A DNA stretch of 64,000 bases from Bacilli bacterium (GCA_051886215.1 JBJEXX010000038.1:341-64340), one strand, 5' to 3'; counted from the first letter of the stretch, positions 43,063-62,496 are shown. Numbers and translations: made by a program. Notes: generated from the letters alone by a model not told the origin.

Positions 43063-43084
43063 AATTATTTCCCGGGAAATAATT
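43063..43084. promoter_or_regulatory. Noc-binding site (NBS) copy 1
   Basis: AATTATTTCCCGGGAAATAATT, with palindromy extending to 26 bp (43061-43086). The core 43066-43081, TATTTCCCGGGAAATA, equals the B. subtilis NBS consensus. It lies between the rsmI stop and the pth Shine-Dalgarno. Confidence 0.8.
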
Positions 43085-43089
43085 AGTAT

Positions 43090-43929
43090 CTACTTATTCA
43101 AATGATATTGCTTATATATATCAGATTTTTTTTCATTTCTGTCTTTTGCAACTAATTTTATTGCATCCTTCTCATTATTTCCCTCATCTATATACATTTT
43201 AACATGTTCTACTATAGACATATCAGAAAAATTAAGAACTTCGTTATTTCCCTCTATTACAATTACAAATTCTCCTTTTAAAATTATATCATGATCTAAT
43301 AATTCTTTAATTGTCCCACGATATATTTCCTCATGTATTTTTGTTAATTCTCTACAAATACAAATGTTTCTATCTCCAAAAACTTTATATACATCTTGTA
43401 AGAAATCATTTATTCTATGTACTGCCTCATAAAACACCAAAGTATAAGGTAAACTCTTTAAAACATTTAATTCTTTAATTCTTTTACTGCTTTTAGAATT
43501 TAAAAAACCATAAAACAAAAAATGAGTAGAATCAATTCCGGATACCATAAGTGCAGGAATTGCTGCAGTAGCCCCAGGAAGACCAATCACATTAACTCCA
43601 TTTTTTGCTAAATACTCAACCACTTTATATCCAGGGTCACTTAAAATAGGAGAGCCTTGATCTGTTACTAATCCTATATTTAATCCGTTTTTTACATCAA
43701 TTAATACTTGTTTTTTTATAATATCTTCGTTATGTTCATGACAACTAACTAATTTTTTCTTTATATTAAAATGATTTAACAATATCCTAGTGACTCTAGT
43801 ATCTTCACATAAAACATAATCAACTTTTTCTAATAAATTTAATGTTCTAATAGTTATATCTTCAAAATTACCAATAGGAGTTGGAAGAAGATATAAGCTT
43901 GACTGATTATTATAACTATTTTGAATCAT
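43090..43929 (-). CDS. rsmI: 16S rRNA (cytidine1402-2-prime-O)-methyltransferase
   Basis: 279 aa of the tetrapyrrole-methylase-fold RsmI family (LYLLPTPIGN, CEDTR, GLPGATA). Confidence 0.92.
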   Translation of the reverse strand: MIQNSYNNQSSLYLLPTPIGNFEDITIRTLNLLEKVDYVLCEDTRVTRILLNHFNIKKKLVSCHEHNEDIIKKQVLIDVKNGLNIGLVTDQGSPILSDPGYKVVEYLAKNGVNVIGLPGATAAIPALMVSGIDSTHFLFYGFLNSKSSKRIKELNVLKSLPYTLVFYEAVHRINDFLQDVYKVFGDRNICICRELTKIHEEIYRGTIKELLDHDIILKGEFVIVIEGNNEVLNFSDMSIVEHVKMYIDEGNNEKDAIKLVAKDRNEKKSDIYKQYHLNK

Positions 43930-44647
43930 CTACATCACCTAACATTTCTATAATTTCTTCTGTATATATATTTTGATTTTTATATATAATAATTGGTTTT
44001 TCTATAATTAAATTATCTTTCCCATTTTTTATACAATCTATTAAAAATAATTTACTAGGAGAATTAATATATGGATGAACAAACATAATCCTCTTTGGAA
44101 TTAAATTATTCATTCTCAGTTTATTAATTATTTCTATTAATCTTTCAGTCCTATGTATCATATAAAAATGACCTTTATTATTTAATAAATAATTTACCTT
44201 TTTTAATATATTATCTAAATCAATCATCTTTTCATGTCGGGCAATTGTTTTACTATATGCTGCATTTTCTTTATTATTTTTAAAATATGGAGGATTAATA
44301 GAAACTATATCATAAGAATTAATACTAAAATATTTATTAACATCCATGATATTGTAATTATATAAATTAATATACTTTTCCAAAGAATTTGCTTCTACCG
44401 TTTTTTCGCCTAAAGAAAATATGTTTTTTTGAATTTCAATACAATCTACTTTTATACCATATTTTTTCACTAATATTAAAGGAATTGGAATATTTCCTGT
44501 AGCTAAATCAATTATTTTCTTATTTATACCTACATTCATAAAATTAGCAAGAAGCACAGAATCTAAACTATAACAAAAAGAATCTTTATCTTGAAATATA
44601 TAAGTATTCTTATAATTTAAAAATTTTTCTTTAACTACTTTTGTCAT
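43916..44647 (-). CDS. tRNA (adenine-N6)-methyltransferase, YabB/TrmN6-like
   Basis: SAM-binding fold with the NPPYF catalytic motif. ATG at 44647 is preferred (the track ORF starts at 44674). It overlaps the ricT 3-prime end. Confidence 0.8.
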   Translation of the reverse strand: MTKVVKEKFLNYKNTYIFQDKDSFCYSLDSVLLANFMNVGINKKIIDLATGNIPIPLILVKKYGIKVDCIEIQKNIFSLGEKTVEANSLEKYINLYNYNIMDVNKYFSINSYDIVSINPPYFKNNKENAAYSKTIARHEKMIDLDNILKKVNYLLNNKGHFYMIHRTERLIEIINKLRMNNLIPKRIMFVHPYINSPSKLFLIDCIKNGKDNLIIEKPIIIYKNQNIYTEEIIEMLGDVDDSK

Positions 44648-45422
44648 TTTCCATAATAATAGATGTGTTATCATTAAATTCTACTTTATATGTATTATTT
44701 AATATATTAACTTCTACTACCTTTCCACTCCTGCCTTCTATATTAACAATATTACCTATTGCAGGCAATTCTTTTTTTAATTCAGTATATATATCATCTT
44801 CATAATTAAGACAACATAATAATCTTCCACATTGACCGTTTATTTTAGTAGGATTCAAAGATAAAAATTGATTTTTAGCCATATTTATAGAAACGCTTTC
44901 AAATTCTTCTAAAAAGCTATTACAACAAAGAACTCTTCCACAAGGACCTAAACCTCCAATTATTTTAGCTTTATCTCTTATCCCTACTTGTCTTAACTCT
45001 ATTCTTGTTTTAAATACTTGAGCCAATTTTTTAGCTAATTCACGAAAATCCACCCTATCAGCAGAAGCATATCTTATGAATAATTGTTCTCTATTAAAAG
45101 AAAAAGATGCACTAATAAATCTCATTGGTAAATCTAATTGTTTTGCTATTGATGCTGCTTTTGAGAGAGCTTTTTCTTCTTCTTTAATATTTTCATTATT
45201 CTTTTTTATATCATCTTTGTTTGCAATTCTAACAACTCTATTTAAAGGAAAAACAACGTCATCATCTTTAAATTCTTTTTCTATAGTATTAACTATACCA
45301 AAAGCTGTATAATTTTCCATTTCTACTATTACTTTATCATTTTTTTTAAAATGTTGTCCTAACGGATCACAATAACGTACAGTTTTGCTATCTTTCAATA
45401 TAACTCCTACTAGTTTATACAT
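44631..45422 (-). CDS. ricT: PSP1-domain regulatory iron-sulfur protein RicT (YaaT)
   Basis: 263 aa with a PSP1 domain and Cys clusters (GPCGRVLCC, GQCGRLLCCLNYE). holB-yaaT synteny. Confidence 0.9.
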   Translation of the reverse strand: MYKLVGVILKDSKTVRYCDPLGQHFKKNDKVIVEMENYTAFGIVNTIEKEFKDDDVVFPLNRVVRIANKDDIKKNNENIKEEEKALSKAASIAKQLDLPMRFISASFSFNREQLFIRYASADRVDFRELAKKLAQVFKTRIELRQVGIRDKAKIIGGLGPCGRVLCCNSFLEEFESVSINMAKNQFLSLNPTKINGQCGRLLCCLNYEDDIYTELKKELPAIGNIVNIEGRSGKVVEVNILNNTYKVEFNDNTSIIMENDKSS

Positions 45423-45423
45423 A

Positions 45424-61057: not shown

Positions 61058-61059
61058 TG

Positions 61060-61088
61060 TTGAAAAAATATAACTAATATATTATAAT
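61060..61088 (+). promoter_or_regulatory. candidate sigma-A promoter for mnmE
   Basis: TTGAAA, 17-bp spacer, TATAAT, 27 bp upstream of the mnmE ATG. Confidence 0.55.
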
Positions 61089-61114
61089 ACGATTATTGAA
61101 ATGGAAGTGAGATA

Positions 61115-62470
61115 ATGACTGATACGATCGCTGCAATTGCAACATCATTAGGTGTAGGAGCAATATCTATAGTTAAAGTTAGTGGTCCAGAAGCTATAAA
61201 TAAGGTAAACAAAATTTTTAAAGGAAAAAATTTAAACAAAGTAGAAAGTCACACAATAAATTATGGACATATAATTCATAAAAAAGAAGTTATTGATGAG
61301 GTGCTAGTATCCGTAATGAAAGCTCCAAAAACTTATACTGGTGAGGATGTAGTAGAAATAAATTGTCATGGAGGAATAAGTGTAACTAAAAAAATATTAG
61401 AAATTGTTTTAGGAGAAGGAGTTAGACTAGCAGAACCAGGAGAGTTTACAAAAAGAGCTTTTTTAAATGGAAAAAAAGATTTAATTGAAGCAGAAGCAAT
61501 AATGGATATGATAAATGCTAATAACGAAGAAGCTAGAAAAATTGCTATGAATCAATTAGATGGAAAAACATCTCGTATGATAAAAAGTCTTCGCCAGGAA
61601 CTATTAGAATTACTAGCATCTATAGAAGTAAATATAGATTATCCAGAATATTACGACATAGAAGAAATGAATAATCAAAAATTAAAAGAAAATATTAAAA
61701 ATCTTGATAAAAAATTAAAAAATATATTAAAAGAATCAGAAAATGGAAAATTAATAAAAGACGGTATACAGACAATTATTATTGGAAGACCAAATGTAGG
61801 AAAAAGTAGCTTGCTTAATAAATTATTAAAAGAAGAAAAAGCGATAGTTACAGATATTGAAGGAACAACCAGAGATACAGTAGAAGGCACTATTAATATC
61901 GATGGAATAACTTTAAATATTATTGATACTGCGGGTATTAGAAATACAGATGATATAATTGAACGTATAGGAGTAGAAAAGAGTCTTAATTTAATAGATC
62001 AAGCAGATCTAATAATTATGATGTTGAATAATAATGAAACTTTAACAGAAGAAGATAAAAAATTACTTAATATGATAAAAGAAAAAAAATCAATAATTGT
62101 TATTAATAAAAATGATTTAGAAAATAAATTAAAATTAGATAAAGATAAATATAATAATATTATTTCCGTTAACACAATAGAAGATAATGGTATAAATCCT
62201 TTAATTAGTAAAATAAAAGAATTATTTAATTTAGATGAAATTAAAAGTAAAGATTACACATGTTTAACAAATATGAGACAAATTTCTTTGATTAAAGAAA
62301 CATTAGAATTATCTGAAAATATAAAACAAGCTTTAGAAAAAAATTTACCAATTGATTTAATTGAAATAGATATTAAAGAAATTTGGAATAAATTAGGTGA
62401 AATAACTGGTGACTATTATGATGAAGAATTAATAAATCAATTATTTAGTCAATTTTGTTTAGGAAAATAA
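61115..62470 (+). CDS. mnmE: tRNA modification GTPase MnmE
   Basis: 451 aa with a G domain (GRPNVGKSSLLN, DTAG, NKND) and the C-terminal CLGK motif. Confidence 0.97.
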   Translation: MTDTIAAIATSLGVGAISIVKVSGPEAINKVNKIFKGKNLNKVESHTINYGHIIHKKEVIDEVLVSVMKAPKTYTGEDVVEINCHGGISVTKKILEIVLGEGVRLAEPGEFTKRAFLNGKKDLIEAEAIMDMINANNEEARKIAMNQLDGKTSRMIKSLRQELLELLASIEVNIDYPEYYDIEEMNNQKLKENIKNLDKKLKNILKESENGKLIKDGIQTIIIGRPNVGKSSLLNKLLKEEKAIVTDIEGTTRDTVEGTINIDGITLNIIDTAGIRNTDDIIERIGVEKSLNLIDQADLIIMMLNNNETLTEEDKKLLNMIKEKKSIIVINKNDLENKLKLDKDKYNNIISVNTIEDNGINPLISKIKELFNLDEIKSKDYTCLTNMRQISLIKETLELSENIKQALEKNLPIDLIEIDIKEIWNKLGEITGDYYDEELINQLFSQFCLGK

Positions 62471-62474
62471 GAAA

Positions 62475-62496
62475 AATTATTTCCCGGGAAATAATT
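62475..62496. promoter_or_regulatory. Noc-binding site (NBS) copy 4
   Basis: AATTATTTCCCGGGAAATAATT, in a 24-bp palindrome at 62474-62497. The core is 62478-62493. It lies 3 nt after the mnmE stop and 23 nt before the mnmG ATG. Confidence 0.8.

Follow-up and report, generated by a model that had tools for sequence, protein, structure and literature searches.

A window of 64,000 nucleotides (64 kb) from a Bacilli bacterium (GCA_051886215.1, JBJEXX010000038.1:341-64340), by which we mean the whole stretch of DNA that was analysed, carries four identical 22-bp palindromes around its replication origin (oriC). That a DNA clamp of the Noc type, related to ParB, is loaded at these palindromes is almost certain, and we assign a probability of about 0.78 to the more precise reading that they act as nucleation sites for the Noc orthologue of this lineage, a ParB-family DNA clamp dependent on cytidine triphosphate (CTP). 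An earlier note on the same DNA had already proposed a Noc-binding site (NBS) at the heart of each palindrome. The analysis supports that interpretation and adds to it the conservation of the sites across a whole clade, their coupling with parS, the site of the paralogous clamp ParB (Spo0J), and the existence of a Noc devoid of its membrane-targeting helix.

Four identical palindromes around the origin

An exact search located the palindrome AATTATTTCCCGGGAAATAATT at the four places where the earlier note had reported mismatch-free copies:

43063-43084, no strand: NBS-type palindrome c1, exact match, in the 43-nt rsmI/pth gap, 15.7 kb left of oriC
49059-49080, no strand: NBS-type palindrome c2, exact match, tadA-like/dnaX, 9.7 kb left of oriC
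61036-61057, no strand: NBS-type palindrome c3, exact match, in the jag/mnmE gap, 2.3 kb right of oriC
62475-62496, no strand: NBS-type palindrome c4, exact match, in the 51-nt mnmE/mnmG gap, 3.7 kb right of oriC

At up to three mismatches the window holds no fifth copy of AATTATTTCCCGGGAAATAATT (0 expected from 100 shuffles), and a search for the 14-bp core ATTTCCCGGGAAAT at up to two mismatches returned none in the window besides the four copies. The G+C content of the window is ~25%, and the hexamer CCCGGG occurs in it four times (0.25 expected), always inside the palindromes and nowhere else, as had been remarked before. The symmetry of the four copies reaches 24-26 bp, a further point on which the comparison of flanks agrees with the original description, and beyond the palindrome the copies are mutually unrelated.

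Regarding their gene context, the rsmI stop codon precedes c1 by 5 nt and the pth start follows it at 16 nt; c2 shares 2 nt with the stop codon of the tadA-like gene and lies 578 bp from a parS cluster, in the same interval downstream of gyrA; the jag stop is found 17 nt before c3; and for c4 the distances are 4 nt from the preceding mnmE stop and 25 nt to the start of mnmG. The closeness to stop codons described in the earlier note is real, although the distances across the four copies span 0-17 nt and not the 0-16 nt first given. A strong promoter-like element, TTGAAA-17-TATAAT (11/12 matches, 61060-61088, + strand), is present upstream of mnmE, and its -35 box begins 3 nt past c3.

The distances from the origin are taken from the dnaA-rpmH gap, where a change in GC skew and DnaA-box-like repeats place oriC:

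58549-58950, no strand: oriC region in the dnaA-rpmH gap, with a GC-skew sign change at ~58-59 kb and DnaA-box-like sequences

These sequences are TTATCAACA at 58658, 58701 and 58748, and TTATTCACA at 58833. The genes dnaA, dnaN and recF border the region at one end, while its other end is bordered by rpmH, rnpA, yidC and jag. Measured from this point, the palindromes c1 to c4 lie at -15.7, -9.7, +2.3 and +3.7 kb, in line with the previous estimates of 9.5 and 15.5 kb on one side and 2.3 and 3.7 kb on the other.

The short distance (0-17 nt) separating the four copies from a stop codon, together with the 10-14-bp stem that each of them could form, would suit elements acting at the RNA level, as hairpins or intrinsic terminators where genes end, an explanation to which we give practically no credit. 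The possible stems have little stability (-6.3 to -10.7 kcal/mol), with three of the four z-scores between -1.4 and -1.8, no T-run accompanies any copy and none was called by a terminator scan of the window, while copies are also found in tandem arrays and inside genes. Moreover, the palindrome is identical across >100 species without covariation, a sign that the sequence itself is what is recognised. The weak folds, the absent T-runs and the lack of covariation contradict the hairpin reading, which is rejected.

The core of the palindrome is an NBS, distinct from parS

All four copies hold the 16-bp sequence TATTTCCCGGGAAATA, which contains the 14-bp core ATTTCCCGGGAAAT and which we take to be the NBS of Noc letter for letter. 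A length of 16 bp is documented for this site (PMC8429893), and a search of the text of PMC7383237 for TATTTCCCGGGAAATA gave no match.

Canonical parS sites are present in the window as a separate group:

49640-49740, no strand: canonical parS triplet directly downstream of gyrA, spacing 42-43 bp

Two members of the triplet (49640-49655 and 49725-49740) are perfect copies of TGTTTCACGTGAAACA and the third (49683-49698) carries one mismatch; altogether, the search of the window for parS gave 10 strand-matches against 1.2 expected. The core of the 22-mer differs from the parS consensus TGTTNCACGTGAAACA at 4 of 16 positions, that is, two per half-site as formerly pointed out, and the palindromes are not parS. 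Since both kinds of site occur in the window, this two-position difference is kept within one genome, and it is the same difference by which the discrimination between ParB and Noc has been described (PMC7383237). The parS at 49725-49740 forms, together with its flanks, a terminator-like hairpin for gyrA.

Conservation of the sites near the origin in relatives

A scan for the exact 22-mer, covering one genome each for 185,579 species (596 Gb), found at least 120 stretches where fewer than about one was expected by chance. The matches listed come nearly all from AT-rich metagenome-assembled genomes (MAGs) of uncultured gut bacteria labelled Bacilli, Tenericutes or Mycoplasmatota, or from 'CAG' genomes, Clostridium sp. 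CAG:710 among them. As many as 114 of the 120 listed stretches align to the window at 37-64 kb, and at 115 of the 120 loci the neighbours are origin-proximal genes, within ~-23 to +10 kb of oriC, in comparison with the ~2% expected if the sites were evenly spread on 1.5-Mb genomes; proximity to the origin is, in this regard, a clade-wide feature. The 120 listed loci hold 245 core sites, each one with the full 16-mer, and the slots shared with relatives are gyrA-tadA-dnaX, dnaX-ybaB, rsmI-pth, jag-mnmE, mnmE-mnmG and rsmG-noc. Among the listed loci, the core sites fall as follows:

gyrA-tadA-dnaX interval (slot of c2): ~133 of 245 core sites, the commonest slot
ybaB-like/dnaX: 25 core sites
inside the trmN-like gene: 15 core sites
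pth/rsmI (slot of c1): 9 core sites
jag/mnmE (slot of c3): 8 core sites
rsmG/noc: 3 core sites, with a copy upstream of noc in three relatives

The slot of c1 is filled in 10 other species, where the island formed by the palindrome is invariant (alignment A2), and that of c4 (mnmE/mnmG) is also filled in locus L062, so both the site and its position are conserved. In 15 species the 22-mer lies within the gene for a trmN-like methyltransferase (e.g., L002, 7288-7309), where its translation, LNYFPGNNL, immediately precedes the NPPF motif, whereas the orthologue in the window (43916-44674) reads NKYFSINSY and lacks the site. Among the listed matches, the GyrA nearest to that of the window shares 82% identity with it, and MnmE, Pth, RsmI and DnaX are 50-62% identical, values which imply that these relatives diverged at the level of genus to family or beyond.

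The five listed loci found elsewhere are two Syntrophomonadaceae contigs, one contig of 37% G+C (spoIIA region), locus L039 and one 338-bp fragment. Two conventional Bacilli, Ligilactobacillus acidipiscis (L076, 7234) and Listeria fleischmannii (L083, 7914), also carry the exact 22-mer adjoining gyrB or gyrA, in an origin-proximal position. Several other contigs bear the labels Muribaculaceae or Bacteroides helcogenes (L013, L015, L016, L029, L030, L033, L085, L087, L094, L103, L104, L118 and L120); they are AT-rich and combine a Bacilli-type gyrA/dnaX/pth synteny with NBS, which probably reflects wrong binning or labelling of these MAG contigs.

As anticipated, the density of sites near oriC far exceeds that of B. 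subtilis, with ~70 NBS on its chromosome (PMC4331003). NBS of the described kind are dispersed along most of the chromosome and avoid the terminus, and the matches to the 22-mer are distributed much more tightly. These data bear on a simple alternative, ordinary nucleoid occlusion in the style of B. subtilis, for which the NBS would form a scattered set and the window would show its origin-side part only. In B. subtilis the density amounts to ~1 site per 60 kb, so 43 kb of window without a site say little, and the two sites of L039, at polA, are distant from the genes of the origin. We consider this alternative unlikely, given that 115 of the 120 listed matches fall so close to oriC and that locus L122, with 21 kb around noc, has a single NBS (jag/mnmE) and none in the 10 kb past noc. 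Among the systems described so far, nothing corresponds to tandem arrays in which the sites alternate with parS, and a scattered set serving a membrane tether also fits poorly with Noc orthologues that lack the membrane-targeting helix in 126 of 126 cases.

The gene neighbourhood could also suggest a transcription-factor operator, not a Noc site, co-regulating rsmI, pth, tadA, mnmE, mnmG, rsmG and trmN: all four copies adjoin RNA-modification or translation genes, c3 ends 3 nt before the promoter-like -35 element, and three relatives have a copy upstream of noc. We find this very improbable. The flanking genes are no more than those commonly found near the origin in Firmicutes (PMC8136486), 15 species keep the site inside coding sequence, and arrays of up to 9 copies, interleaved with parS, occupy non-coding DNA. 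Moreover, the core is taken to equal the NBS letter for letter, and the Noc of the lineage has matching specificity residues.

Coupling of the NBS with parS

Sites of the parS type (at most one mismatch) coexist with the NBS in 67 of the 120 listed loci, mostly in the same gap as in the window, downstream of gyrA. Mixed NBS/parS clusters number 38 in 36 listed loci, and a parS is found within 100 bp of 94 of the 245 NBS. The tightest organisation consists of head-to-tail repeats downstream of gyrA, whose unit comprises one parS and one 22-mer NBS, 57-68 bp apart; in other loci the centre-to-centre distance between NBS and parS is 22-39 bp. The arrays are:

2363-3702 of L113: parS/NBS array, period 125, 10.7 copies
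2258-2963 of L004 (closed 1.52-Mb MAG): parS/NBS array, period 126, 5.6 copies
L054, L098, L100 and L115: parS/NBS arrays also present

No tandem array exists in the window, arrays being found in relatives only, and the window offers a loose version of the parS/NBS layout, with the triplet and c2 578 bp apart.

In Clostridium sp. CAG:710 (L056; 3996-4040, 4392-4437 and 4812-4856), NBS and parS are 29-30 bp apart, and the spacers hold the DnaA box TTATCCACA or a one-mismatch version of it. As a general feature, a DnaA box near the NBS was discarded: exact boxes accompany 7 of the 245 NBS (1.6 expected), in 6 loci, and none is found near the four NBS of the window. The NBS/DnaA-box/parS layout is limited to a sub-lineage, and its enrichment across the clade is weak.

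Site width and selection

In the jag/mnmE gap of nine species, including the window, 24-25 bp are invariant within flanks that are essentially random (alignment A3), and the rsmI/pth gap shows a similar invariant island amid diverged flanks (alignment A2). A fixed stretch of ~24 bp between diverged flanks speaks for selection acting on a site longer than the 16-mer. The selection test used 51 core sites (102 half-sites) which lie in the listed loci but had not themselves been selected by the scan. All 51 keep the full 16-mer with A-rich flanks, with W at ±9 and with A (T on the other side) in 70-76% of cases at ±10 to ±12, against a background of 36%. In the exact 22-mers, position ±12, also unselected, is A or T in 341 of 386 half-sites (88%). 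Altogether, the sequences indicate a selected site of ~24 bp, AAAW-TATTTCCCGGGAAATA-WTTT.

Either a longer recognition site or recent homogenisation had originally been offered as an explanation for identity over 22 bp. The former survives as a longer selected site, whereas the latter is rejected because the same 22-mer fills orthologous gaps in >100 species with flanking proteins only 50-62% identical; by this comparison of sequences, the 22-bp identity is ancient and maintained. A mobile or recently homogenised repeat, akin to miniature inverted-repeat transposable elements (MITE) or repetitive extragenic palindromes (REP), would explain four identical copies in 19.5 kb and the tandem duplications of relatives, but hardly deserves any weight, since the copies of the window share nothing past 24-26 bp, no larger repeat unit is present in the window, and orthologous gaps are occupied across family-level divergence. 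Positional conservation and the absence of a shared longer unit exclude this origin.

A Noc orthologue without membrane-targeting helix

No ParB-family gene is encoded within the 64-kb window, and the expected noc locus lies past its right edge; an identical MnmE was found on one other contig only, a 6.7-kb Logan contig that also ends inside mnmG. In relatives, a ParB-family gene directly follows rsmG in seven loci (L062, L093, L097, L077, L105, L060 and L122), the order mnmE-mnmG-rsmG-noc predicted in the earlier note is seen in six relatives, and L067 shows the succession noc-soj-spo0J. The gene thus adjoins rsmG (gidB) in the origin cluster, an ancestral ORI gene cluster having been described (PMC8136486). 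In L122 (10001-12981), a class A penicillin-binding protein (PBP) gene on the opposite strand follows noc instead of soj-spo0J, and the 21 kb read contain no parS.

The genes were located with a tblastn probe of B. subtilis Noc, used for gene location only, and the family was assigned through NCBIfam and PDB searches. Among solved structures, the Noc proteins of Geobacillus thermoleovorans (E 4e-59) and B. subtilis match best, with Spo0J ranking behind them. The NCBIfam model TIGR04285 (nucleoid_noc) gives 273.5 bits for L077, 283.0 for L093 and 279.3 for L097, in comparison with 231.4 for the Spo0J of the clade. Pfam ParB_N and HTH_ParB domains are assigned to the Noc matches, and the CTP motif GERRYKA is present in 117 of 120 Noc homologues.

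Four positions, Q173, K179, K184 and R201, determine the specificity of Noc, with one lysine being enough (Jalal et al. 2020, PMC7383237). Among the 120 homologues, Q173 and R201 are invariant and K179 is kept in 118, so that inspecting the paralogue beside rsmG, as the earlier note had recommended, reveals in relatives residues of the Noc type. On the other hand, the Spo0J of the clade (L067) shows the ParB type (R…G) at the specificity positions and carries the N-terminal ParA-stimulating peptide LGKGL. By its specificity residues, its synteny and its best matches, the gene after rsmG is a Noc orthologue, whose predicted specificity fits the site. In L077 (4242-5288; proteins P0001 and P0002) the four positions read Q-T-N-R, with no lysine at 179 or 184, yet this genome keeps the NBS; the Q-T-N-R combination has been reported as non-functional in a Caulobacter ParB scaffold.

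Several observations weigh against the reading of the palindromes as Noc nucleation sites. The evidence on noc comes from the proteins of relatives, because the locus of the source genome lies beyond the edge of the window, and these proteins score under the curated cut-off of TIGR04285 (315 bits). Position 184 is usually N, not K, and two proteins are devoid of both K179 and K184. The membrane-targeting helix is absent in 126 of 126 Noc orthologues examined. With respect to the DNA, the two sites of L039, an AT-rich relative, flank polA, and the clustering at the origin rests on a scan for the exact 22-mer, which leaves room for weaker, scattered NBS elsewhere.

The loss of the helix is apparent at several levels. 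The N-terminus preceding PNRFQPR comprises 16-18 residues in 118 of 120 homologues and 16-21 across all orthologues, and residue 5 of the orthologue aligns to residue 26 of the G. thermoleovorans Noc and to residue 29 of the B. subtilis protein, so that, according to the alignment, helix α1 (the amphipathic, membrane-targeting one) and helix α2 are both missing. The hydrophobic moment of the N-terminus is low, and the AlphaFold model (mean predicted local distance difference test, pLDDT, of 71; >85 for the N-terminal and DNA-binding domains) depicts residues 204-256 as disordered and residues 257-274 as helical, with a further helix at the C-terminus and no N-terminal amphipathic helix. A relocated amphipathic helix was sought in the Noc orthologues and nothing convincing was found. 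The N-terminal amphipathic helix was present in all homologues examined by Adams et al. (2015, PMC4331003), and the NocNΔ10 variant was non-functional. Since the helix is missing in the Noc of this lineage, membrane tethering cannot be simply assumed.

The linker of the orthologues measures 100-250 amino acids and is disordered, acidic and N-rich, with the sequence YEIFDIPTAEE conserved in one sub-clade. In P0003-P0120 a short motif, K/QYEIFDIPTAEE, is conserved within the linker, directly preceded by a helix modelled with confidence (257-274 of P0001).

Other features of the window

Three structured RNA elements were also annotated:

49507-49603, - strand: small signal recognition particle (SRP) RNA gene, Rfam RF00169, 57.9 bits, flanked by the parS cluster and by the tadA-like gene, together with which it separates that cluster from c2
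37525-37725, - strand: T-box leader, 133.5 bits
9942-10053, - strand: ribosomal protein L10 leader, 53.7 bits

Proposed mechanism

In the proposed mechanism, a Noc dimer would recognise the 16-bp core TATTTCCCGGGAAATA within the selected site of ~24 bp. Then, by analogy with the Noc of B. subtilis, a CTP-dependent clamp (PMC8429893), CTP would be bound, and the clamp would close and slide onto the adjacent DNA. Spreading over 8-10 kb is known for the Noc of S. aureus (PMC5540599), and the sites at -15.7, -9.7, +2.3 and +3.7 kb, with probably one more before noc, could coat a domain of ~25-30 kb centred on oriC. Such a Noc domain would overlap the one that ParB would form from the three parS downstream of gyrA. 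Noc binding, CTP-dependent spreading and the biological output are steps that we infer from the systems already described.

The output is the least certain step. It is probably the marking or organisation of the origin region for the control of the division site or of replication, the canonical output, occlusion of the divisome through membrane tethering, being doubtful without the membrane helix. Organisation of an origin domain, control of replication initiation, as reported for the Noc of S. aureus, and recruitment of a partner through the linker are possible alternatives.

A broader proposal can be advanced tentatively, and we hold it with less than even confidence. In a large lineage of uncultured gut Bacilli with small genomes (relatives of Clostridium sp. 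CAG:710 and 'Tenericutes' MAGs), Noc may be a second origin-specific, ParB-like clamp without membrane helix, which would use a few fixed sites of ~24 bp at less than ~20 kb from oriC and would load together with ParB at centromere repeats composed of parS and NBS. If true, this protein would represent either a re-specialised Noc or a living intermediate between ParB and the canonical Noc.

Comparison with known systems

The Noc-NBS system of nucleoid occlusion was reportedly the subject of a study by Wu in 2009. Work on Noc has covered two or three model Firmicutes only, where it binds many scattered sites and pulls the DNA to the membrane through the N-terminal helix. The present lineage uses the same DNA code across >100 species, yet its sites are restricted to the origin, keep their positions and are paired with parS, and its protein lost the part deemed essential. 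The literature searched contains no description of origin-restricted NBS, of parS/NBS arrays or of a helix-less Noc. Such a lineage provides a natural experiment on what a Noc clamp does without membrane binding, on how one centromere region accommodates two paralogous CTP clamps, and on how the specificity and function of Noc diverged from those of ParB.

The Noc-NBS systems of B. subtilis and S. aureus (Adams 2015, PMC4331003; Pang 2017, PMC5540599; Jalal 2020/2021, PMC7383237 and PMC8429893) resemble the one described here in the 16-bp core, taken to be identical, the separate parS and, as judged from the proteins of relatives, a ParB paralogue encoded after rsmG with Q173, K179, R201 and the GERR CTP motif. 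In contrast to the ~70 NBS of B. subtilis and the 41 of S. aureus, spread over hundreds of kb, the sites of the lineage lie within ~20 kb of oriC, in fixed orthologous gaps, extend over ~24 bp with A-tract flanks, and often adjoin or alternate with parS, sometimes as tandem units of 125-126 bp. The protein also departs from the described Noc in having neither the N-terminal amphipathic helix nor α2, in its disordered linker of 100-250 amino acids and in a score under the NCBIfam cut-off.

Chromosomal ParB(Spo0J)-parS is similar in being based on a palindromic 16-bp site for a ParB-family clamp, present in few copies close to the origin, and the distribution of the palindromes is in this respect parS-like and not NBS-like. 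Nevertheless, two specificity positions per half-site differ, true parS are found separately at 49640-49740, and the cognate protein has residues of the Noc type and lacks the ParA-stimulating peptide LGKGL seen in the Spo0J of the clade.

A third term of comparison is offered by plasmid centromeres such as sopC of the F plasmid, which consists of 12 units of 43 bp. The head-to-tail loading sites for ParB-family proteins found in relatives are reminiscent of such arrays, as is the 42-43-bp spacing of the parS triplet in the window. Unlike sopC, the arrays of this lineage are chromosomal and alternate two types of site for two paralogues, whereas the NBS of the window are single and dispersed.

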